The notes under the pieces: model-generated
The model's database searches: none
The model's input: only the letters and a program-made list of their open reading frames with translations
Told to the model about the DNA's origin: nothing
Translations under genes and position numbers: made by a program
Source: Acidobacteriota bacterium
GTDB taxonomy: Bacteria; Acidobacteriota; UBA890; WLXD01
Assembly (NCBI GenBank): GCA_965205505.1
Contig: CBDBHB010000008.1
Span: 992,001 to 1,056,000, forward strand
Length of the DNA: 64,000 nucleotides
Reading direction: 5' to 3'
Shown here: positions 9,813 through 61,288 of the stretch, in pieces
Numbering within the stretch: position 1 is the first letter of the stretch
How the letters are laid out: the number at the start of each line of letters is the position of its first letter

Positions 9813-12800
9813 CTACTCCCGCGTGATCGTCTCGTCGAGGTTCATGATGATGCCGGCGACGTTGGCCAGGCCGCCAGCTCGATGGGGTCGTGGCCGGGAT
9901 CGTAGCTGCCCTCACCGACGGTCAGCAGCTGGTGGGCGGCCTCGGGATCGTCGCGGTACTCGTCGAGCTGCCCCTGCGCCGCCTCGACGAATGTCGGGTC
10001 GTTCAACAACACCAGCGCCTGCAGCGGCGTGTTCGTCCGTGGCCGGCGCACCGTGCACGACTCGCGGTCGGGCGCATCGAACGTATTGAGCGACGGCGGC
10101 GGCACGGTGCGCTTCCAGAACGAGTACATGCTGCGACGGTAGAGATCTTCGCCGTGGCTCGGCGTGTAAGACTGCGCCGTGAAGTGCGCGCCGTAGGCTA
10201 GCGGCTTCCACAAGTCGGCTGGTTGGTACGGAAACACGCTCGGCCCGCCGATGGCGCCGTTCAGCAACCCGCTCACCGCCAGCGCGCCATCGCGAATCAT
10301 CTCGGCGGGCAGCCGGAACCGTGACGCGCGGCTCAGCAGCCGGTTCTCTGGATCATGCTCCGCATGCCATGGCGTCAGGCGCGACGACTGCCGATAGGTA
10401 GACGAGGTGACGATCAGCCGCTGCATGGCCTTGACGTCCCACCCCGACCGGACGAACTCGGTGGCTAGCCAATCGAGCAGCTCGGGGTGGCTCGGCAGCT
10501 CGCTCCGGGTTCCGAAGTCCTCCAGCGTCTTGACCAGGCCGGTGCCGAAGTACATCTCCCAGTACCGGTTCACGGTGACCCGTGCCGTGAGCGGGTGCCC
10601 GGGGTCGACGAGCCATCGTGCCAGTCCGAGCCTGTTGGCCTCGGCGCCGGCAGGCAACGGCGGCAGCGCGCTGGGTGTGCCCGGCGAGACGGGATCAGTT
10701 TGGTTTCGATAGTCGCCCCGGCGCAGGATGAACGTCTGGCGCGGCTCCTCGCGCTCCGCCATGACCATCGTCGTGACGACGGTGTCCTCGAGCGCAGCGA
10801 GCTCGCTCCTGAGGGTCTTCAGCTGGCGGTGAGCGCGCCGGTACTGCGGCGGCGCATGCCGTGTGAGGAAGTAGTCGCGGAGCTCCTCGTCCTGCACCTC
10901 GCGCAGGTCAGTTTGCTCCTCGCTTTCGCCCACTGGCTCCTCCGACCGGTCGGTGTGTATCTCGTCGAGGATGCTCCGCACCGGCAGGTCGGTGACCAGG
11001 CGGTCGATCTCGTAGGCCTCGATCTTTCGCGCGTAGAACCTCAGGTCGTCGACCAATCCCGCATAGCCATCCACGGGCCGATCCGATCCGACATGAAGGT
11101 CGCCGCCGATCCGCAGCACGGAAGCCGACTCGATCGTCCCCTCCAAGCTGTCGTGCTCGATCACCACCTCGACCGGCCTACCATCCACGTAGAGCTGTAC
11201 ACCCGCCGCTTGGCGCGATCCGTCATAGACGATTGCCACGTGCTGCCACCGGAACATAATCAGCGGCTCCGCGCGTCCTCACCGACAGGGCGCTCGATGG
11301 CCAGTCGTGGATCAGCCGAAAGTACAGGTGTGTGCCGATATTGGCCCGTGGCAACACGATCGATTCTCCGAAGGAGACGGCGTAGCCACGGTGCCCCCTG
11401 CCCTCGTCGACCTTCGAAACGAGCGCTTAGCGAGCTTGCCTCGATGACGGGGAAACCCAGGCCGCGATCGACAACGGCTGCGCTGCGTCCAGGTCCAGCG
11501 CCGATGCATCGTCTAGATCGGCGTGCGTCTCGCCGTCGAGGTACGCCGCCTCGCCGACGCGGCCGTCGCGGTATGCGAGATACGCGCTACTGGCCTTGGC
11601 GTGCAGATAGTGCCCGCTGGTATCGGCAAGGTGGCCGTCGAACTCGAAGTGAGCGACCAGATCGTCACGTGGGGCGGTCGGGACCGTGGCCAGGGCGCCC
11701 GCCTCCCATCGCCCCTGCAGGTGGCCGATCGTCGCCTCCGGCAGCTCGTCTTCGAGCGCTTCGATCCGCGCCTCGATCGAGGTGAGTGTCCGGTCTTCGT
11801 CGGGCGTGGGCACGAGCACGAACGGCTCTGCGTTGCCGGCCTGGCCGTCCAGCCCCACCTCGTCGACGTTGTTGAAGAAGGCGAAAAAGCGATAGAAGTC
11901 TCTCTGGCTGATGGGGTCGTACTTGTGGTCGTGGCACCGGCTACACCCCATCGTCAGGCCCATCCAGACCGTCGAGGTCGTGTGGAGACGGTCGACGACA
12001 TACTCGACGAGGTATTCCTCGGGGATGGCGCCACCCTCGTAATTGATCATGTGGTTGCGGTTGAATCCCGTGGCAATCAGCTGCGCCCGCGTCGGGTCCG
12101 GCAAGAGGTCGCCGGCAAGCTGCTCGATGGTGAACCGGTCGAACGGCATGTTGGCGTTGTAGGCGTCGATCACCCCGTCACGCCAGGGCCACATGTCACG
12201 GTGACTGTCGATGTGGTAGCCGTGCGTGTCGGCGTAGCGCGCCAGATCCAACCAGCGCATCGCCATGCGCTCACCGTAGCGCGGTGAGCTCACCAATCGT
12301 TCGACCACCTTCTCGTAGGCGTCCGGCGAGTCGTCAGCCAGGTATGACTCGACCTCCGCCGGAGTGGGCGGAAGGCCGGTAAGATCGTAGGAAGCGCGTC
12401 GTATCAGGGTCGACCGGTCAGCCTCCTCCGACGGTTTCAGTCCTTCCCGCCCCAGGCGAGCGCGTACGAAAGCATCGATCGGGTTCCGGCCCCAGTCGAC
12501 GTCTGTGACCGTCGGGACCTCGGGTCGTACGGGAGCGACAAACGCCCACGGAGGCTCCCACTCGGCACCCTGATCGATCCAACTGCGGATCTTCCCGATC
12601 TCGTTCGGCGTTAGCGACAGACCCGAGCCCGCCTTCGGCATGCGGCGGTGCTCGGACTCGTCGGTGATGCGCTGGTAAAGGGCGCTCTCGGCCGCGGCAC
12701 CGGGCACGACAACGGGACCACCGAATCGACCGCGATCACCGAACAACCCCTCCTCCACGTCGAGCCGAAGTCCCCGCTGGCGCCCTGCATCATCCGGCCC

Positions 12801-51480: not shown

Positions 51481-51742
51481 GATGACGCGGTACGACGCTG
51501 GGGACACCGGCTTCTAGACGCTCGAGAGTGGCGAGCGCCTCGGCGGCACGACCCAGGTAGCAGTGTTGGTGGGCCCGGAAGCTGCGCCCCGGGACTCCTG
51601 ATTCGTTCACGCTTTGCCCCCGTCGCTCTCCGTCAGCGTACCGTCCGCTTGCCGCAGACTCTACAATTCCACAGCCACACGACAGGATCCCCGGGTGCCG
51701 TGTATTGTGCGGCCGGTATCGAGGAGTAGGCCTCTGGCCAGC

Positions 51743-53575
51743 GTGCGCAGCAGACGACGGTTGGGTTCGACGATCCTGCTGATCGCCCTGGTGGTGGGCG
51801 CGCAGCCCGGACAAAGCTCTGCCGCCCGTGGCGTTCAGCAGGGCACCACGCAGACGTTCTTCCGCACCGAGACGCCCGGCGCGCTGCCACCTCTGCTTCG
51901 CAATCTGTCGCCGGTGACGGACGAGGACCTCGAGAACCCGCCCGACGGCGAGTGGCTGAGCCATAGGCGCGGCTACGCGCTCTTGGGTTACTCGCCGTTG
52001 GGCCAGATCAACCGCGACAACGTCACCGAGCTCGAGCTCGTGTGGGCGTGGGCGATGAACGGCCGCCGGACCCAGGTGCAGCCGCTGGTCCACGACGGCG
52101 TGATGTTCCTCAACCAGTCGGCGGACATCATCCAGGCACTCGACGCCGCCTCCGGCGATCTGCTCTGGAGCTACGATCGTGAGCTCCCGGACGGTTTGTT
52201 CCGGTTCGCCTACGCGAACCGCAATATCGCGATCTACGAGGACATGATCATCCTGGCCACCGGCGACGCACACCTAGTGGCCCTCGACGCCCGCACCGGC
52301 CAGGTGCGATGGGACGCAGAGGTCGCGGACCACTTCGAGGGCTACGGGTACTCGGCCGGGCCTATCGTTGCCGACGGCAGAATCATCGCGCCGATGTCGG
52401 GCTGCTACATGATCAACGAGGGCGGCTGCTGGGTCTCCGCCCACGACCCGGACGACGGCTCGGAGATCTGGCGGCGCATCACGATTGCCGCGCCCGACGA
52501 ACCGGGTGGGAAGAGCTGGGGCGGTATTCCGAGCACGGAACGATACGGAGGCTCCGTCTGGATGCCGCCGTCCTATGACCCCGAGACGCGCACGCTGTTC
52601 GTCGGCACGGCGGTTCCCATCCCGTGGGGCCGGGCCCAGCGGGCGGCGGGCGGTGATCTCCTCCACACCAACTCGACGCTGGCGTTGGACACCGTGACCG
52701 GTGAGATCAAGTGGGCGCAGCAGCACATTCCGGCTGGCAACTTCGACATGGATACCGTGTTCGAGCGGCACGTGGTCGTCGCCGAGGCGCGACCCGACCC
52801 CGCAGAGGTCCGGTGGATCACCGACGAACTACCTCAGCAGCCGCTGAAGATGCTGTTCGGCATGTTCGGAAAATCGGGAATCGTTCGCGCCATGGACGCC
52901 GAAACCGGGCGGCTGCTCTGGGCCCGCGAGACCTACTACCAGAACGTCGTGTCGGACATCGACGTGACGACCGGCCGCGCCGATCTGAACGAGAGCCTGA
53001 TGGGCGGCATCGGTGAGACAACGTTCATTTGCCCCAGCCTCGCCGGCGGCCGCAACTGGCCCGGGACTGCGATCGATCCCGACGCAGGGGTCTTCTTCGT
53101 CGGCTTCAACAACACCTGCATGGACTACACGCTCAAGGACGTATCTCCCGAGGCCGGCGCCTACCACGACAGCGCTAGCCTGAGATTGCGCCATCCGCCG
53201 AACTCGGACGGCAACGTCAGCGCGGTGATGGCGATCGAAATCGCGACCGGGCGCCAGCTGTGGCGTCACGACGGGCGCGGGTCCTCGCACAGTGGGGTCG
53301 TCGCCACCGGCGGCGGCCTAGTGTTTCACGGTGATATCAACCGCGACTTGCGGGCCCTGGACTCGCGAAACGGAGAGGAGTTGTGGGCGACGCGCCTACC
53401 GACCCCGGTTCTCGGGAGCGTCGTGACGTACGCCGTCGACGGTGTTCAATACCTGGCGGTGCCAACCGGCAGCACCAGCGGCTTCTACGGGCTCACTCCG
53501 GAGATACCACGGCCGGCGAGCAACTCGGCCTTGTTCGTGTTCCGACTGCGTGGCGCTCGCACGCCGACCGATTAG
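51743..53575 (+). CDS. PQQ-dependent dehydrogenase-like protein, divergent
   Basis: WLSHRRG..YSPLGQINRDNV, WMPPSYDP, NFDMD, GKSG, CPSLAGGRNW, VTYAVDGVQYLAV; start uncertain. Confidence 0.85.
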   Translation: MRSRRRLGSTILLIALVVGAQPGQSSAARGVQQGTTQTFFRTETPGALPPLLRNLSPVTDEDLENPPDGEWLSHRRGYALLGYSPLGQINRDNVTELELVWAWAMNGRRTQVQPLVHDGVMFLNQSADIIQALDAASGDLLWSYDRELPDGLFRFAYANRNIAIYEDMIILATGDAHLVALDARTGQVRWDAEVADHFEGYGYSAGPIVADGRIIAPMSGCYMINEGGCWVSAHDPDDGSEIWRRITIAAPDEPGGKSWGGIPSTERYGGSVWMPPSYDPETRTLFVGTAVPIPWGRAQRAAGGDLLHTNSTLALDTVTGEIKWAQQHIPAGNFDMDTVFERHVVVAEARPDPAEVRWITDELPQQPLKMLFGMFGKSGIVRAMDAETGRLLWARETYYQNVVSDIDVTTGRADLNESLMGGIGETTFICPSLAGGRNWPGTAIDPDAGVFFVGFNNTCMDYTLKDVSPEAGAYHDSASLRLRHPPNSDGNVSAVMAIEIATGRQLWRHDGRGSSHSGVVATGGGLVFHGDINRDLRALDSRNGEELWATRLPTPVLGSVVTYAVDGVQYLAVPTGSTSGFYGLTPEIPRPASNSALFVFRLRGARTPTD

Positions 53576-53648: not shown

Positions 53649-55055
53649 CTACGAGCCTGCCTCCGTGATGCGATAAAGGCGGGATGCCGTGCGCAGGAAC
53701 AGGCTGCCGCGCGCCAACGCCGGCGTCGCCATGATCATCTCGTCGAGGCTGTTGATCCCGAGCACCTCGAACTCCGCCCCGGCCCGGACCACATAAGTGT
53801 CGCCATCCTCGCTGGCGGCGAAGATGCGATCCTTGTACGCCCAGGGTGACGCGGTATAGGCGGTGGCCGCCGAGATACGCCGCTTGTCGTAGATCTCCTC
53901 ACCGGTGCGCGCATCGTGGGCGGTCATGAATCCGCGATCGTAAAGCGTATAGTACTGGTCGCCATAGACGAGCGGTGACGGATTGTAGGGACTCCCTTGC
54001 GGTAGCGACCAGGCGACGTGGTCGTTCGACGTCTCTCCCTTGAGGATCGAGATATCGCCACCGGCACCGGGCCGGATCGCGAAGACGGGTCGATGTTCAT
54101 CGCCTACGTAACCGGAAGCAAGGTATAGGAGGCCGAACTCCGTGAACGGGGTCGGGATCGTAATCGACGACATGCCACCCAACTCCCAGAGCGGCTTGCC
54201 GTCGAGATCGTAGGACCGCACCCGATCGGTGCCCGAAGTAACCACCTCGGTGCGCACCTCGTTTTCCCAGATGAACGGCGTCGCCCAATTGGTCCCCTCG
54301 TCGCGTAGCACCGTCCAGAAGTCCTCGCCGGTGACGGCGTCCACGGAGGCTATGAACGACTGGTCGTCGTTGTCGTTGACGATGTACAGGCGTCCCTCGT
54401 GCAGCGCCGGCGAGGCGGCCGTTCCCCAGCCGTTACGAGTCTGCACCATGGGCCAGCGCCGCTCCCACACCACGCTGCCCTCGAGATCGAGCGCGAACAG
54501 ACCGATGTTGCCGAAGTAGACGTAGATCCGCTTGCCGTCGGTCACCGGCGTCTCGGAAGCGTAGCTGTTCTTGAGATGGCGGGGTGTATCGGGAACACCA
54601 CGGTGCAGCTCCGTTTCCCAGCGCAGCTTACCGGTCTCGACGTCGTAGGCGTACACCACCCAGCGATGGGGGTCCGTGGGGGTCGGTCGCTCGCCGCCGA
54701 AGTAGAGCCCCGGAGTGGGCTCCTCCCCCGGAGCGGAGCTGATCACCGACGTCACCACGATGAGCTCGCCGGTGACGATCGGCGAGCTCCAGCCCATACC
54801 CGGAACCGGGGCATTCCAGACGACGTTGTCGGTTGTGCTCCAGTTGCTCGGAAGGGCGGAGTCGTCCGCGATGCCGCGTCCCCCCGGGCCGCGGAACTGG
54901 CGCCATTCCTGCCCGTCGGATGGCTGGGATGGCAGTCCGGACAGCGCCTGCGAGGTTACCGCCAGCCCCAGCGCCAACATGCCGAGCAGACAGATGAGGA
55001 CGTCGCGTCGATCTGCAGCCCGTCGCGACGAGCTTGGCATGGCAGGTAAGTACAT
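53649..55055 (-). CDS. PQQ-like (BamB-type) beta-propeller protein
   Basis: WRQFRGP, GWSSPIV, YASETPVTDG, WGTAASP, TASP, MATPA. Confidence 0.88.
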   Translation of the reverse strand: MYLPAMPSSSRRAADRRDVLICLLGMLALGLAVTSQALSGLPSQPSDGQEWRQFRGPGGRGIADDSALPSNWSTTDNVVWNAPVPGMGWSSPIVTGELIVVTSVISSAPGEEPTPGLYFGGERPTPTDPHRWVVYAYDVETGKLRWETELHRGVPDTPRHLKNSYASETPVTDGKRIYVYFGNIGLFALDLEGSVVWERRWPMVQTRNGWGTAASPALHEGRLYIVNDNDDQSFIASVDAVTGEDFWTVLRDEGTNWATPFIWENEVRTEVVTSGTDRVRSYDLDGKPLWELGGMSSITIPTPFTEFGLLYLASGYVGDEHRPVFAIRPGAGGDISILKGETSNDHVAWSLPQGSPYNPSPLVYGDQYYTLYDRGFMTAHDARTGEEIYDKRRISAATAYTASPWAYKDRIFAASEDGDTYVVRAGAEFEVLGINSLDEMIMATPALARGSLFLRTASRLYRITEAGS

Positions 55056-55155
55056 CGGCTCCCCTGGCTTCCTACGATCCAATAGCGCAATCTTGCCGAC
55101 GAATTCGGCCCGCGTGAAAGGGTGCCGTCTGTCGGACAGCAGGTAAAGGGAAATC

Positions 55156-57186
55156 GTGCACCGCCTGAAGCCACTGCGCGCGAGGTTGATGGGGATCACA
55201 TCCATCCTTCTGGTCGTGTCGTGCACTGCCCCGGCCGGCATCCAGCCTGCGAGCTCCGAGGGCGAGTGGCTCCATCACGGAGGCGATCCAGGGAGCCGCA
55301 AGTACTCTTCGCTCAATCAGATCGACAAGAGCAACGTCAGCGATCTGCGCATCGCGTGGCGATGGGAATCACCGGATGCGGCGATACGCGCCGCGAACCC
55401 CGCGCTACGACCGCCTTTTCTGCACGAGGCCACCCCGATCATGGCAGGTGGCGTCCTGTACACGACCACCTCTTACCATCTGGTCGTAGCGATCGACGCG
55501 GCCACCGGGCAGTCGTTGTGGACCTACGATCCCGGCGTGTGGAAACACAACGCCCGTCGTGGGTCATCCGAAAACCCCGCAAGCAACGCACCACCGAACT
55601 GGGCGTTCGCTCACCGCGGCGTCGCCTACTGGTCGGACGGCCGCACCCAGCGAGTCTACATGGGAACGGGCGATGGACGCTTGATCTCACTGGACGCCGA
55701 GACCGGACGTCCGGACCCGGATTTCGGGGACGCCGGCATTGTCGATCTGACCCAGGGCCTCTCGCGCCCGCTGGTGCGCGGCACGGTCGGTAGAGACAAC
55801 CGGCTCGCCTATGGAGTCAGCTCACCGCCCATGGTTTGCGGGGATGTGCTGGTGGTCGGCTCCAACCTCGTCGACGCGCTCATCGCGTTCGATGGCCCGC
55901 CCGGCGATGTCCTGGGCTACGACGCGCGGACCGGCGAGCAGCTGTGGCGATTCAACACGGTGCCGCAGCCGGCCGGACATGGTGCCGACACCTGGCCGCT
56001 GGACGCCCTCGACACTCATGGAAACGCCAACGTATGGACGCTGATGAGCTATGACCCCGAGCTCAACTACGTCTATCTCCCGGTCAGCGGAACGACCAAC
56101 GACTATTACGGCGGCCACCGCCCGGGCGACAACCTGTTTTCCCAATCGTTGGTCGCCGTGGATGTGGCAACGGGCCGCAGGGTCTGGCACTACCAGCTGA
56201 CTCATCACGGCCTGTGGGACTATGACCTCCCTGCGGCTCCGGTGCTGGCGGACATCGAGGTAAACGGCCGACAGATCAAGGCGGTCGCTCAGGGCTTCAC
56301 CTTCGTGTTCGATCGGGAAACGGGCGAGCCCGTCTGGCCGATAGAGGAACACGAGGTCCCCACCGCGCCGACCGTCGAAGGGGAGATGCTGTCACCGACG
56401 CAACCCTTTCCGACCGTCCCGGAAGCCTTCGAGCGTCAAGGCGTGACGCCCAGCAGCGTCATCGACTTCACGCCGGAGCTCAGACAGGAGGCCTTGACGA
56501 TTCTGCAGCAGTACAACCATGGCCCGCTGTACTCACCGCCGTCAGTGGAGGGCACGTTGATCATGCCGGGAAGAATCGGGGGAGCCAACTGGGGTGGCGC
56601 AGCATTCGACCCCGAAACCGGCGTTCTCTACGTCCCTTCCCTGTCCAAAGTCGACATTTACCGACTCGGCGCGGCGGATTCATCGACCGATTTTCGATTC
56701 GTTCGGGAAGAGTACGCCTGGGGCTCGGGCCCGCAGGGGTTGCCCTTGACCAAGCCGCCCTATGGCCGACTGACAGCCATAGGACTCAACGATCAGGGGC
56801 GGCATCTGTGGATGGTTCCGGTGGGCGAAGGACCGCGGCATCATCCGACGCTTCAGCCACTGGGGTTGCCCGATCTCGGTAGCCCGAGGTTCAGGTTCCC
56901 TCTCGTTACCGAGAACGGTCTGCTCTTCCTGAGCGAGGGGCGCGCCCCGGGCCGCGAGTCGGCATGGTGGGATTACGGCTCCGAAGCATCAACGGAGGAG
57001 TTGGAGGACACGCGTCTTCGCGCCCTGGACAAGGAGAACGGCACGTTGCTGTGGGAGTTCGAGCTGCCGGGTCCTGCGTCCGCACAACCCATGACGTACC
57101 TACACAACGGCCGGCAGTACCTTGTCATCGCCGTTGGAGGAATGGGGCTCTGGAAGCAGGAGCTCCTTGCTTTCGCGCTCCCATGA
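55156..57186 (+). CDS. PQQ-dependent glucose/quinate dehydrogenase-like lipoprotein
   Basis: LVVSC lipobox, KYSSLNQID, RGVAYW, DYYGGHRPGDNLF, HHGLWDYDLPAAP, GGANWGGAA, KPPYG. Confidence 0.88.
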   Translation: MHRLKPLRARLMGITSILLVVSCTAPAGIQPASSEGEWLHHGGDPGSRKYSSLNQIDKSNVSDLRIAWRWESPDAAIRAANPALRPPFLHEATPIMAGGVLYTTTSYHLVVAIDAATGQSLWTYDPGVWKHNARRGSSENPASNAPPNWAFAHRGVAYWSDGRTQRVYMGTGDGRLISLDAETGRPDPDFGDAGIVDLTQGLSRPLVRGTVGRDNRLAYGVSSPPMVCGDVLVVGSNLVDALIAFDGPPGDVLGYDARTGEQLWRFNTVPQPAGHGADTWPLDALDTHGNANVWTLMSYDPELNYVYLPVSGTTNDYYGGHRPGDNLFSQSLVAVDVATGRRVWHYQLTHHGLWDYDLPAAPVLADIEVNGRQIKAVAQGFTFVFDRETGEPVWPIEEHEVPTAPTVEGEMLSPTQPFPTVPEAFERQGVTPSSVIDFTPELRQEALTILQQYNHGPLYSPPSVEGTLIMPGRIGGANWGGAAFDPETGVLYVPSLSKVDIYRLGAADSSTDFRFVREEYAWGSGPQGLPLTKPPYGRLTAIGLNDQGRHLWMVPVGEGPRHHPTLQPLGLPDLGSPRFRFPLVTENGLLFLSEGRAPGRESAWWDYGSEASTEELEDTRLRALDKENGTLLWEFELPGPASAQPMTYLHNGRQYLVIAVGGMGLWKQELLAFALP

Positions 57187-58147: not shown

Positions 58148-59221
58148 CTACTGTCCCTCGCTTGTCTCCTCATAGCGCGCGCCGCTCAACACGTTGTAGA
58201 GGGAGTAGTTGCCTTCGTGACAGGCGTACTCGTAGAGCGGTTCGTCGAAACGCTCGAACGGAATCTGGCCTCCCCAGACGCTCGCATACATCGTCGGATC
58301 GTCGATGGTGAACTCGTAGAGAATGGTCTCCTCATCGACTCGGGTGAAGCGCTCGATCACCTTCCCGTCTTCCGAGCGGGGGACACCGCGGAACAAGTGA
58401 TCGGGATTCAAGTTGGTGGTCTCGACCACCAGCGTGTCCCCCTCCCAACGACCCCATGAGTCACCGAACCAGGGACGCATGTCGTTCGGAAGCGATGCGG
58501 GCTCACCGAGCCGGATGATCCGGGCGTCGTGCACCATCTCCGTCATGATCATCACGTGATCGGCGTTCTGCACGATCGTGTAGTTGTTGTTGTACCAGTA
58601 GTTGGGGAGCATCGGCGGACCGGCGTTGGAGCCGAACGACACGAGGCAGCGTTGCGCCAGAGGCAGGAGCTCGGGATGATCGTGCGGGCCGAACTGGCTC
58701 CTGAGCGTGGCACGTTCCTCGACCCGCCGACGTCCCTCGGGCGTCAGCTCCGGCACGACGCCATCCTCTGGGGTCGTGACCAGCGAGCTCCTGGGCACGC
58801 CATTCACTACCGCCACGCGCTCACCGGGCTCCCGGTAGACCTCGTTGTAGCAGCCAGTAGCCGTATCGATGCAGACGGGGTAGGTACCGCCCGTCGTCGG
58901 CGGCGGGCGGTTCGGGTCGCTCGGCGCGGAGCCCTTGGCGACGGTGGCCGCCTGACCCGCCTCGATCTCGGTAACCTGTTCGCGGCTGAGAACGGGCCCC
59001 AGGCCTGGCAGGCGCTCGACCGGGGTAAGCGTAGCGTTGGTCCAGTTCCCTTGAAGATCCGGGTGACCATGCGGCGTCCTGGGCACCTGCCACTGTACGG
59101 CATCGGAAACAGCGCTCTGCGCCGCCGCGGGCGACAACATCGTCGCCACCGACAACGAGATCACTGCGGTAGCCATGGCGCATCGCCTGAGCGACAACGA
59201 GGTCCAGAGATTCACGTTCAT
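58148..59221 (-). CDS. Conserved-looking hypothetical secreted protein
   Basis: GGAGG RBS, signal peptide, GHPDLQGNW, GDSWGRWEGDTLVVETTN, YEYACHEGN. Confidence 0.85.
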   Translation of the reverse strand: MNVNLWTSLSLRRCAMATAVISLSVATMLSPAAAQSAVSDAVQWQVPRTPHGHPDLQGNWTNATLTPVERLPGLGPVLSREQVTEIEAGQAATVAKGSAPSDPNRPPPTTGGTYPVCIDTATGCYNEVYREPGERVAVVNGVPRSSLVTTPEDGVVPELTPEGRRRVEERATLRSQFGPHDHPELLPLAQRCLVSFGSNAGPPMLPNYWYNNNYTIVQNADHVMIMTEMVHDARIIRLGEPASLPNDMRPWFGDSWGRWEGDTLVVETTNLNPDHLFRGVPRSEDGKVIERFTRVDEETILYEFTIDDPTMYASVWGGQIPFERFDEPLYEYACHEGNYSLYNVLSGARYEETSEGQ

Positions 59222-59530
59222 CTTTGCTCCTCCGAACGGACTGGCGCTCTACGAAGGTTTCCGCACATCGTCGGTCCTTTCACGAGCGCGACGCGCCCAA
59301 GACTGCCCGAGTGGGACACGCGCGCAAGTGTAACCGCAAGCGACGGTTATCATCCAGGCTGCCGCCCGGGTGTCTCCGAACCGACGCCGCCCACCAGGAT
59401 GGCGGATCACTCCCGGGCGCTACCCGGAACGCGCTCATCCCGGTTAGCCTAGAGGGTGCGAGCGAGGTGCCGGAGCGCCAGCAAGCGTTGGTGGAAGTGA
59501 GGCGGGCGTGGCAAGGAGGCGGCTAAGAAG

Positions 59531-60766
59531 ATGAAGATGCATCTCATCGAGCAGCGAACAACAGCGACGGCGGTCATCGCTCTGAGCGTCGTGCTTGCCT
59601 GCGCGCCGCAGGAGCCTGGATCCTCAGAGGAGACGAATCCGGCTCCGGAGTCAGCACCGTTGCGTGCCGCGCACGAAACGGTGAGCGACCCGAGTAACAC
59701 GTTCGTGGACGAGCTCGGGCTAAAGGCTGGTGTGTCGATCGACCATCCCGGCGTGGTGCATCCCGGTTCGGCTGATTTCCCGACCGGGCCGGCGATCGGT
59801 GAGCGACTCCCCGATTTCACCCTGCCGAACCAGCACGGTGAGGCAATCGACTTCCAGCAACACCATGCAGGACAAAAAGCTGTGCTCGTCTTTTATCGGT
59901 CCGCGGTCTGGTGACCGTACTGCATGACGCAGCTGGTCGAGCTGCAAAAGCAGATCACGGAATTCGACACGGCAGGAATCCATGTCTATGGCATCAGCTA
60001 CGATCCACAAGAGGCGCTCAAGAGCTTTTCGGACCGCTACGGGATCACCTACGACCTGCTCTCGGATGTCGGCTCGGTGGTGATCCGACGCTTCGGCATT
60101 CTCAACACCCTCATCGACCCAGAAGATCCCCGAGCCGGCGACTTCTACGGGGTCCCGTTCCCGGGTACGTATGTTGCGGACGAGTTCGGCGTCGTCACCG
60201 AGAAGTTCTTCAGCCGCCACTACGCAACCCGCGAGTCGGCTGGCACGATCCTCGACAAGGCCCTCGGAAAGGTCTTGCTACACGAGGAGTCGCCCCAAGC
60301 CAACGAGCAGGGCGACCGAGTCAGGGTCACCGCCTTCCTATCGGATGCGGATCTGAAACTGGAGGTCATCAACACACTCCATGTTCGCTTGGAGCTGGCC
60401 GAAGGATTTCACCTCTACGGTGAGCCACTCCCCGACGGTTTCTATCCGACCAGAATCAACGTTCGACCGGCTCGTGGCCTGAGAATCGGCGAGCCGGCCT
60501 ACCCGCCGACCACGCCGAAAGAGTTCGAGATTCTCGGTGTAACGCTGAACGTCTACCAGGAGGTCGCTGATATCGCCGTTCCGATCACCGGAACCACCGA
60601 GCTATGGGGGTCTTCTGAATCCGGTGGAGCCGACGGCCAACCGCCGGTCGAGCTGAGTATCTTCGTCGATTATCAGGTTTGCAGCGAAACGATCTGTTAC
60701 CGGCCGCAAAGCGCGCGTCTGATGATCGAGACGACGCTTGCGCCGCTGATTGAGCCGGCGGAATAG
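59531..60766 (+). CDS. Selenoprotein: AhpC/TSA (Prx-like, UxxC) domain fused to a DsbD-alpha-like domain, lipoprotein
   Basis: ORFs 59531-59914 and 59924-60766 are in the same frame. TGA 59912-59914 sits in VFYRSAVW-U-PYC, the position of the first Cys of the WCPxC motif. SECIS-like hairpin follows; VLAC lipobox; C-terminal YQVCSETICY. Confidence 0.88.
59915..59960 (+). promoter_or_regulatory. Bacterial SECIS-like element
   Basis: Upper stem gcagct/agctgc (59929-34/59940-45) with a G-initial loop ggtcg 20 nt after the UGA; possible lower pairs ctgc/gcag and ccgt/acgg. Confidence 0.75.
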
Positions 60767-60959
60767 GTACCAAACGATGGGGTGTGCCGAAAGCGGCGTA
60801 GGGCGCCGCTCCGGCCGCGTTATCGTTGCCGGAGTCGCGCATGTCACTTTCGGAACGCTTCTATCCCCGACGAAGGTCACGTGGTCCGGGGCTGCGGACG
60901 CGAGCCATGCCCTAGCCGCAAGCGATTCTCATTCATCGCCACTGCCGGAAGCCTGTGGC

Positions 60960-61288
60960 CGGAATTCCGAGCTCATCCGCTACAAGGCCCGACCGCTGCA
61001 CGGCATCTGGGCTACGGCACCGTTCCTGCACAACGGATCGGTGATGAATCTCTACGAGCTGTTGTTGCCGGCCAAGGATCGCCGCCGCGTATTCTACGTT
61101 GGCGGCCGAGAGTTCGATGCCGTCCGGATCGGTCTTGACACGCGGCGCGGGCCAGGGCGCACTCGCGTTGATACATCGCTACCGGGCAACTCGCGCATCG
61201 GCCACGAGTACGCCACGCAGCGACTCAGCAGGACGCAGCGCTGGCGACGCAGCGCTGGCAGCTGATCGAATACCTGAAGACGCTGTAG
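60960..61288 (+). pseudogene. C-terminal remnant of a RoxA-like/di-heme cytochrome c peroxidase family protein
   Basis: YKARPLHGIWATAPFLHNGSV, GNSRIGHEY; a 14-bp tandem duplication (61232-61259) shifts QLIEYLKTL* out of frame; no CxxCH or N-terminus remains. The left boundary is approximate. Confidence 0.82.

Follow-up and report, generated by a model that had tools for sequence, protein, structure and literature searches.

The window, a 64,000-nucleotide stretch of an Acidobacteriota genome, carries on its forward strand a gene (59531..60766) of 411 codons and a TAG stop, whose ATG is preceded at a distance of 11 nt by the sequence AAGGAGG (59513..59519), which reads as Shine-Dalgarno-like. 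Under translation table 11, this gene appears as two ORFs in the same frame, 59531-59914 (127 aa, ending in SAVW) and 59924-60766 (280 aa, starting with MTQLVELQ). Translation with TGA as U yields one open frame of 411 residues, in which the sole U, at codon 128 (59912-59914), lies within the motif W-U-P-Y-C. This result confirms the claim of an earlier note on this DNA that a single in-frame TGA interrupts one continuous frame. Orthologues from the same genus are 71–92% identical across their full length, with one TGA in each. An assembly error does not explain the TGA, because independent contigs from four runs of four studies span the stretch with 0–1 differences, none of which affects this codon. 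No RNA run containing the stretch was found among the 24 runs listed. A cytochrome-c-like gene fragment is located just downstream of the gene. We consider it likely that the two adjacent ORFs constitute one gene, which encodes an exported two-domain redox lipoprotein using the TGA as selenocysteine.

The codon at 59912..59914, which would encode Sec128 at position 1 of W-U-P-Y-C, is TGA in every one of the 88 homologous loci in which this site is covered. A total of 89 loci were examined; L115 ends before the site and hence lies outside this count, and the figure becomes 87 of 87 without L022, which originates from the unpublished genome G047. Even at approximately 31–40% protein identity, relatives retain the TGA and a conserved frame on either side of it. 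An alignment of 62 sequences is likewise conserved across the site, and U128, C131, C384, and C389 are invariant in it. Cysteine forms are rare, as W-C-x-x-C occurs in three of the 120 protein relatives listed (P0009, P0049, and P0092). The check for selA, selB, selC, and selD suggested in the earlier note recovered the complete set from the genome: the protein models for selA (432 bits), selB (354.6 bits against a cut-off of 242), and selD (322.8 bits against 125) all score above their cut-offs, and a tRNA-Sec (tca) was identified by ARAGORN. The second check suggested there, for homologues with TGA or Cys at this position, thus returned both forms.

Bacterial SECIS elements are stem-loops situated shortly past the UGA, with a G in the loop. 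A hairpin of this type (GCAGCUGGUCGAGCUGC; 59929..59945 on the + strand) is present here, and its 6-bp stem, formed by GCAGCU and AGCUGC, begins 14 nt past the UGA. The loop GGUCG follows 20 nt past the UGA, and the G-initial loop described in the earlier note is therefore present at the distance given there. Its pairing is conserved across 78 distinct homologous segments, in which 468 of 468 stem cells are paired, while sliding the 3′ partner as a control lowers the pairing to 7–40%. Pair 30-40 is GC in 64 segments, AU in eight, and GU in six, with no mismatch, and pair 27-43 is GC in 77 and CG in one. Covariation is confined to these two of the six pairs because the stem sits within the conserved peptide TQLVELQ. 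The stem is complete in nine of nine Sec paralogues, including single-domain Sec paralogues of the same phylum, versus none of nine Cys paralogues, in which one to four of the six stem positions are paired. Folding of the hairpin region as a single sequence is unremarkable (z = -1.59; 14 of 200 shuffles fold equally well). No Rfam family matches within 59400-60900 at E <= 1; to our knowledge, Rfam contains no bacterial SECIS family for this gene class.

Since the Sec machinery is present, the TGA is conserved in every covering locus, the hairpin co-varies, and Cys homologues exist, the TGA very probably encodes selenocysteine, and these comparative data argue for a genuine Sec protein read across both ORFs. 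UGA128 would most likely be decoded through the binding of SelB to the hairpin downstream. Alternatively, the gene could be decaying and the TGA a nonsense mutation (TGC>TGA), or the TGA could be a genuine stop between two proteins. Gene callers do treat the TGA as a stop, and the cytochrome-c-like fragment downstream could be taken as a sign of decay. This reading is nonetheless already contradicted by the comparative data: the codon and its flanking frame persist in distant relatives, the hairpin co-varies, the decoding machinery is complete, and the independent assemblies agree. Moreover, a stop at this position would truncate a thioredoxin fold right at the active site. We regard the nonsense or stop reading as extremely improbable.

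Signal peptides of lipoproteins end in a lipobox with an invariant Cys. The N-terminus of the selenoprotein reads ALSVVLAC, and a hydrophobic stretch together with a regular expression assigns residues encoded by 59531..59602 (+ strand) to a putative signal peptide with the lipobox V-L-A-C, whose Cys24 is encoded at 59600-59602. By the same type of regular expression, [LV]-[LA]-A-C follows a hydrophobic stretch in the window and in seven close relatives (L016-L019, L060, L061, and L079), while more distant exported relatives have AxA-type signal ends instead of the lipobox. A hydrophobicity heuristic detected no hydrophobic N-terminus in 34 of the 88 relatives, and this signal-less clade possesses a basic C-terminal tail. 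A lipobox-type signal, as noted earlier, is thus supported for the gene in the window, whereas an obligatory periplasmic role is not; with 34 of 88 relatives devoid of a hydrophobic N-terminus, a periplasmic relay fed by CcdA cannot account for the family as a whole.

Residues 89-224 (59795..60202, + strand) form a Prx-fold (AhpC-TSA) domain, with a match to Pfam PF00578 of 104 bits (cut-off 26). The AF2 model of the protein has a pLDDT of 88.2 and a pTM of 0.84. In VIA-align comparisons, model residues 86-248 match BcpB (5epf) with a Z score of 19.3 and AhpE with 19.0, and the domain as a rule scores higher against peroxiredoxins (Z 16-19) than against ResA/DsbE-type proteins (Z 12-14.6). The best Foldseek matches of the whole model are Bcp4, BcpB, and PrxQ, the listing being filled by the Prx domain. 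These top matches, together with the HMMER alignment of Cys131 (59921..59923, + strand), position 2 of UxxC and invariant in the 62 sequences, to the peroxidatic Cys of BCP and AhpE, are consistent with a peroxidase. In such a mechanism, Sec128 or Cys131 would attack envelope peroxides, a U-x-x-C selenylsulfide would form, and the DsbD-alpha-like domain would recycle it, which would make the protein a self-sufficient equivalent of envelope peroxiredoxins that draw on a DsbD/ScsB-type protein. An ScsB-dependent envelope peroxiredoxin is named in the title of PMC3322552, and the PDB list includes natural fusions of Prx with a reductant (1nm3, hybrid Prx5; 4eo3, Prx-nitroreductase). However, the canonical peroxiredoxin set of Pro, Thr, Cys, and distal Arg, with the motif PxxxTxxC, is reduced here to Cys131. 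In the alignment to AhpE, Arg123 occupies the position of the conserved Pro, Sec128 that of the conserved Thr, and Pro211 that of Arg116, a column in which the R116A mutant entry has Ala. Furthermore, no NCBIfam model reaches its cut-off, as the best peroxiredoxin model scores 65.7 against 140 bits and SelL_rel_redox 29.5 against 120. Reviews also class UxxC Prx-fold selenoproteins as "Prx-like thiol:disulfide oxidoreductase", separate from the TxxU peroxiredoxins, and the domain has both features of that class, PF00578 above cut-off and the UxxC motif. Peroxidase activity therefore appears unlikely. Owing to the loss of three of the four catalytic residues of peroxiredoxins, the Prx-fold domain looks like a CxxC-type thiol:disulfide (here selenylsulfide) oxidoreductase.

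The C-terminal part, which contains FHLY...YQVCSETICY with Cys384 and Cys389, corresponds to a DsbD/ScsB-alpha-like Ig domain (model residues 253-403; 60287..60739, + strand). It matches Pfam DsbD_N (PF11412) at residues 281-395 with 47.3 bits (cut-off 25), and its Ig-like fold superimposes on the N-terminal domain of ScsB (6c29_A) with a Z score of 11.9 and an rmsd of 2.5 over 126 aligned residues (VIA-align). The HMM scan proposed in the earlier note accordingly placed both domains above their cut-offs, and Pfam and structure matches bear out the predicted fusion of a Prx-like UxxC domain to a domain resembling the DsbD N-terminal Ig-like redox domain. The alpha-like fold surfaced in the structure search only; when the PDB was searched by sequence, with either the protein or the family profile as query, the 60 chains listed were all of the Prx or Trx fold, and nDsbD was absent from them. 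Cys384-x4-Cys389 (CSETIC; 60680..60697, + strand) is a second putative redox center, both Cys being invariant in the 62 sequences. The spacing of this pair is C-x4-C, not the C-x5-C of C103/C109 in E. coli nDsbD.

The packing of the two domains was predicted by docking with the Cys-form homologue P0009 (57% identical) and a custom alignment, in place of the read-through protein of the window. The docking gave an ipSAE of 0.64 versus 0.00 for the best control. Of 80 solved complexes, 58 attain this mark, as do 2 of 110 mismatched pairs, although these benchmark counts hold only roughly here, given the use of P0009 and a custom alignment. At least 67% of the contacts are common to three runs, with a partner pLDDT of 81 or more. 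The Prx-fold and Ig-like domains are thus predicted to pack together. The confident contacts join the active-site loop (126-137) to the C-terminal tail (405-409) and to strand 278-282, and Cys384 and Cys389 are not among them; residues not named in this interface are uncertain, not absent. The tail, P-L-I-E-P (residues 405-409; 60743..60757, + strand; mapped from P0009 388-392), makes the lowest-error contacts and is predicted to rest on the loop of the Sec active site. In the AF2 model, a strand of 11 residues leads from Cys389 to the tail, and the two redox centers may consequently be far apart in the docking pose. This loop-to-tail interface is unlike the Cys-to-Cys contact of nDsbD and cDsbD described in the consulted portion of a preprint on SOQ1 (bioRxiv 10.1101/2021.03.16.435614), and the docking did not bear out the one-chain Sec/Cys relay put forward in the earlier note, since the Sec site is linked to the tail and one Ig strand instead of to Cys384/Cys389.

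Such an interface would also suit an Ig-like domain that serves as a fixed cap or docking module, with a structural or ligand-binding C-x4-C and U-x-x-C as the only catalytic motif. The pTM of the model suggests a fixed arrangement, and Gly replaces the first Cys of the Ig domain in 2 of the 121 proteins examined. On the other hand, the invariance of Cys384 and Cys389 extends to the export-less clade, in which a structural disulfide is unexpected, and the domain both exceeds the DsbD_N cut-off and matches the alpha domain of ScsB. Cysteines unnamed in the docking interface are, moreover, uncertain there and not thereby absent from it. An Ig-like domain that takes no part in electron transfer is, in our assessment, quite improbable.

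Several known selenoproteins and fusions resemble this protein. "Prx-like thiol:disulfide oxidoreductase" or "Prx-like 1" selenoproteins are credited to Kryukov & Gladyshev 2004 in a table of PMC13188914, and PMC2398784 counts 225 GOS sequences of the Prx-like thiol:disulfide oxidoreductase (PF00578, UxxC). They share with the present protein PF00578, Sec at position 1 of UxxC, and a SECIS hairpin a short way downstream, but the published descriptions are of proteins with a single domain. None of the fusions named in the section of PMC2398784 available to us (PP2C, Secretin_N-like, Unknown_2, and Unknown_3 with CxxC) is the present one. The combination was, however, described as a selenoprotein as early as 2021: PMC9402790, as far as its excerpted text goes, presents a Prx-like U/CxxC protein fused to Pfam11412 from GOS marine metagenomes. 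The architecture is therefore not undescribed, a possibility that the earlier note had left standing. Both proteins combine a PF00578-type Prx-like domain with PF11412, U/CxxC, and additional conserved Cys in the fused domain, and the chain studied here likewise carries PF00578 at 89-224 followed by PF11412 at 281-395. In the excerpt, that report devotes one sentence and one figure panel to the fusion, calls the domain "DsbC", and gives no mechanism, whereas the present case concerns a predicted lipoprotein from an Acidobacteriota MAG for which the exported/signal-less split, the SECIS covariation, and the CcdA-only context were worked out.

The periplasmic domains of DsbD and ScsB similarly place an Ig-like domain with a Cys pair beside a Trx-fold with a dithiol motif. 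In contrast to these proteins, in which alpha is joined to DsbD_TM, the 411-residue chain contains no transmembrane beta domain, its Trx-fold precedes the Ig domain and is of the Prx type, Sec replaces the first Cys, and C-x4-C stands in place of the nDsbD cysteines C103/C109 (bioRxiv 10.1101/2021.03.16.435614, in the portion consulted). The same portion of that preprint describes Arabidopsis SOQ1, which contains Trx-like and nDsbD-like domains in one chain and for which a flow from CCDA to the Trx-like domain, the nDsbD-like domain, and then the substrate is proposed. SOQ1 and the present protein have in common a Trx-fold with an nDsbD-like domain, membrane tethering and a location on the oxidizing side (both predicted for the present protein), and a separate CcdA-type protein, whereas SOQ1 is eukaryotic, uses Cys only, and has an NHL propeller between the domains. 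On our side, the likeness is based on the VIA-align row for 7djk and pertains to the Trx-fold part only.

By analogy with the periplasmic half of DsbD, the two conserved centers, Sec128/Cys131 on the Prx-fold and Cys384-x4-Cys389 on the Ig-like domain, would hand electrons from one to the other as a two-station relay, probably fed by the only DsbD-type membrane protein of the genome, which is CcdA-like and has no periplasmic domains. This sole DsbD_TM match, a 242-residue protein in a 246-codon frame, is located on another contig, and a 246-codon frame is likewise the sole match in each of four genomes of the same genus. In bacteria with a bare CcdA-type membrane protein, the exported form could supply the periplasmic half that is otherwise missing from a split DsbD, a proposal that we advance tentatively and consider doubtful. 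In this split DsbD, Sec128/Cys131 of the lipoprotein would act as the gamma-like station and Cys384/Cys389 as the alpha-like one, and electrons would pass from CcdA to the Sec center, then to the Ig-domain dithiol, and finally to envelope clients, with selenium speeding the first exchange. The signal-less clade with its basic tail would have branched off and put this two-station module to use in the cytoplasm. The occurrence of a CcdA-only context alongside the fusion in one genus and in G014 favors the split-DsbD proposal, while the coexistence of a full-length DsbD with the fusion in the relatives G005 and G047 speaks against it. Among 118 neighboring ORFs of 30 loci, no DsbD_TM, CcdA, or Ccm gene and no conserved redox partner was found near the fusion. 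PQQ dehydrogenases are neighbors in 4 of the 30 loci (L060, from the genus of the window, L062, L078, and L103) and in the window itself. The link to c-type cytochromes and PQQ enzymes suggested earlier thus finds little echo in these neighborhoods. In one of the 30 loci (L119), selB is directly upstream of the fusion.

The module pairs selenium with a DsbD-alpha-type domain and carries two conserved putative redox centers. If the exported form is indeed a periplasmic partner of a bare CcdA, it would explain how reducing power is distributed in the envelope of such bacteria. The main value of the present analysis lies in annotation, as databases hold this family almost exclusively as a fragment of approximately 280 residues without the active site. 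As anticipated, standard pipelines split the gene: 117 of the 120 database relatives listed lack the part before the TGA. The family is nonetheless far from rare: a metagenome scan yielded at least 554 confirmed stretches, and many of the metagenomic relatives are marine.

The selenoprotein gene is real and mis-annotated. Under translation table 11, it is split into an upstream ORF of 127 aa (59531–59914, forward strand) and a downstream ORF of 280 aa (59924–60766, forward strand) sharing its frame. Reading TGA as U joins them, as an earlier note had proposed, into a single 411-residue protein (59531–60766) with a lone U at codon 128 (59912–59914), in the context ...FYRSAVW-U-PYC-MTQLVELQ.... 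An AAGGAGG motif, read from the sequence, precedes its ATG by 11 nt on the same strand. A 1501-nt stretch recurs on contigs in four runs, each of a different study, with 0–1 differences, and the TGA is unchanged throughout. The genome of this organism (96% complete, 9 contigs) encodes SelA (432 bits), SelB (354.6 bits; cut-off 242), SelD (322.8 bits; cut-off 125), and tRNA-SeC(tca), all the components that the earlier note had listed for checking. The SelA profile matches contig C6 at two places with identical scores (10616–11695 and 191418–192497). Several other matches are likewise doubled at equal score (also C9:101790/C9:285079 and C3:8702/C4:2625), some in opposite orientations, suggesting that this metagenome-assembled genome contains large exact duplications or that its assembly is redundant.

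A search of 61 related genomes yielded full-length matches with exactly one TGA in the genome under study and seven others; identity to the protein is 71–92% in four genomes of the same genus and 31–42% in three related genomes (G005, G014, and G047). A metagenome scan returned at least 598 pattern matches, at least 554 of them encoding a relative, and the best 80 of these were examined together with 9 genomic loci. One of the 89 loci (L115) ends before the site; the TGA is present at W-U-x-x-C in all 88 that cover it, or 87 of 87 without L022 from the unpublished genome G047. Cys forms exist and are rare, W-C-x-x-C occurring in 3 of the 120 listed database relatives (P0009, P0049, and P0092). 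Among these 120, 54 begin at the Met directly after the motif, 62 further downstream, and 1 four residues early, indicating that gene callers cut the family at the UGA, just as the earlier note had anticipated for standard pipelines.

Downstream of the UGA lies a hairpin, GCAGCUGGUCGAGCUGC (59929–59945, forward strand), with a 6-bp stem that begins 14 nt after the UGA and a loop, GGUCG, that begins 20 nt after it, where the earlier note had placed it. Folding of the single sequence gives nothing out of the ordinary (z = −1.59, matched by 14 of 200 shuffles), and no Rfam family matched the region. Across 78 distinct 63-nt segments (alignment A2, L022 included), all 468 cells at the six stem positions show standard pairs, and sliding the 3′ partner by 1–3 columns lowers pairing to 7–40%. 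Pair 30–40 never mismatches: it reads GC in 64 segments, AU in 8, and GU in 6, through synonymous CAG/CAA and CUG/UUG changes. Pair 27–43 is reversed to CG in 1 segment and is GC in the other 77. Variation is confined to these two of the six pairs because the stem lies within the conserved peptide TQLVELQ. Single-domain paralogues from the same searches served as a control: all 9 with TGA have the full stem and none of the 9 with TGY do, the latter pairing at 1–4 of the 6 positions. Furthermore, four runs contain short contigs, from other genes or organisms, whose match at 95% identity or more is confined to the 40-nt UGA-plus-hairpin segment (59908–59948); the recoding module is thus conserved in nucleotide sequence between paralogous genes for Prx-like selenoproteins. 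Considering the Sec machinery, the conserved TGA, the Cys forms, the hairpin comparison, and the independent contigs, these sequence data make it very likely that UGA128 is decoded as selenocysteine. Elsewhere in the genome, further Prx-fold matches with one in-frame TGA lie at C8:837758–838198, C3:8702–9037, and C4:2625–2960, which makes several UxxC selenoproteins probable for this organism.

Both domains proposed in the earlier note were matched in Pfam, AhpC-TSA at residues 89–224 (104 bits) and DsbD_N at residues 281–395 (47.3 bits); no NCBIfam model reached its cut-off. Catalogues of UxxC Prx-fold selenoproteins go back to 2004–2008, according to the sections consulted of PMC13188914 and PMC2398784. 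The consulted part of the latter lists several fusions, with Prx-like/DsbD_N not among them (supplementary Figure S1 aside), and a passage in PMC9402790 (2021) presents this architecture without functional study. The selenoprotein is thus a further member of an already published fusion family. In an AF2 model based on 62 sequences (pLDDT 88.2, pTM 0.84), disorder is limited to residues 1–40. Residues 86–249 align best with peroxiredoxins (BcpB, Z 19.3; AhpE, Z 19.0), followed by ResA (Z 14.6) and DsbE/Trx-family thiol:disulfide oxidoreductases (Z about 12–14), and residues 253–403 match ScsB over its N-terminal periplasmic domain (6c29_A; Z 11.9, rmsd 2.5, 126 residues). In the profile alignment to AhpE, the peroxidatic Cys corresponds to Cys131, the conserved Thr to Sec128, the conserved Pro to Arg123, and Arg116 to Pro211, a column occupied by Ala in the R116A mutant entry. 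This comparison suggests a Prx-fold domain with a CxxC-type active site, which fits the name "Prx-like thiol:disulfide oxidoreductase" used in reviews. The 62 sequences share Sec128, Cys131, Cys384, and Cys389 without exception, and also His294 in the G-F-H-L-Y motif, showing two invariant dithiol-type centres, one on the Trx-superfamily domain and the other on the DsbD-alpha-type domain.

These centres would allow a reductase relay, in which reducing power is handed between Sec128/Cys131 and Cys384/Cys389. This relay is the preferred reading. A peroxidase function, for which an ScsB-dependent envelope peroxiredoxin (PMC3322552, in the part consulted) is a precedent in the opposite direction, comes next, since the domain lacks three of the four catalytic residues of peroxiredoxins. 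The two domains were docked with the natural Cys form P0009 (57% identical) as a stand-in, using our own alignment of search-result proteins. The score was 0.64, versus 0.00 for the best control. Of 80 solved complexes, 58 attained this mark of 0.64, as did 2 of the 110 mismatched pairs; these counts are rough given the alignment used. The three runs have at least 67% of their contacts in common, the partner pLDDT is at least 81, and the model supports packing of the Prx-fold domain against the Ig-like domain. In window numbering, the confident interface comprises residues 126–130, 132–134, and 136–137 (the Sec loop and its helix) with 228–243 on one side, and 271–284 with the C-terminal tail 405–409 (P-L-I-E-P) on the other. 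The earlier note envisaged a Sec/Cys relay within one chain, but Cys384 and Cys389 are absent from the named contacts. Since an 11-residue strand separates this pair from the tail in the AF2 model, the two centres may be far apart in the docked pose, as judged from contacts rather than coordinates. Exchange between two chains, or following domain motion, is possible.

Arabidopsis SOQ1 similarly combines Trx-like and nDsbD-like domains in one chain, and its proposed flow, in the consulted part of the preprint, runs from CCDA through the Trx-like domain and the nDsbD-like domain to the substrate (bioRxiv 10.1101/2021.03.16.435614). The only DsbD_TM protein in the genome is CcdA-like, with 242 residues and neither alpha nor gamma domains. 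The four same-genus genomes carry DsbD_TM solely as a 246-codon frame, and G014 as one of 305 codons; in the fusion-bearing G005 and G047 (the latter unpublished), the DsbD frames are long, at 617 and 927 codons, respectively. A further stand-alone DsbD_N protein of 193 aa with a signal peptide (C8:911702–912046; L059:1348–1929) contains E-G-F-H-I and Y-Q-A-C-N-D-A-A-C, with C-x4-C spacing identical to that of the fusion.

The N-terminus comprises K2, R9, a hydrophobic run, and V-L-A-C24, presumably the lipobox noted earlier, an ending common to seven close relatives. A hydrophobicity heuristic applied to 88 relatives assigned a hydrophobic N-terminus to 51, none to 34 (a few doubtful: L062, L022, and L099), and an incomplete one to 3. 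Outside the genus, the hydrophobic N-termini have mostly AxA-like ends. In most of the 34, the UGA follows the upstream stop by only about 76–96 codons, leaving no space for a signal, and many are extended at the C-terminus by about 75 residues of basic character. The family thus has an exported and an apparently cytoplasmic clade, with Sec and C-x4-C kept in both. In the signal-less clade (L108–L135, e.g. L111, L118, and L119), the extension has a conserved G-H-G-Q-R-E followed by an amphipathic Arg/Lys-rich stretch.

Among 118 neighbouring ORFs of 30 loci, there was no conserved partner gene and no DsbD_TM or Ccm gene. Support for the suggestion that the protein serves cytochromes c or PQQ enzymes goes no further than PQQ dehydrogenases, which adjoin in 4 of the 30 loci (L060 of the same genus, L062, L078, and L103) and in the window. 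In the window, three PQQ-type beta-propeller genes lie upstream within 6 kb, at 51614–53575 (forward), 53649–55241 (reverse), and 55156–57186 (forward; 603 bits to the PQQ dehydrogenase family). In metagenomic locus L119, selB (214–2367, forward) lies directly upstream of a signal-less family member. Positions 58148–59221 (reverse) encode, in divergent orientation, a protein of 357 aa that starts with a signal-like segment and has no match in Pfam; ORFs likened to it by size and position, also without a Pfam match, adjoin the selenoprotein gene in the same-genus loci L016–L019 and in L060. Overlapping the selenoprotein stop codon, a 171-aa ORF (60750–61265, forward) has as its sole match a 39-residue RoxA-like cytochrome-c motif (59.9 bits) and resembles a piece of a longer gene for a haem protein. 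Its counterpart in L016 has 251 aa.
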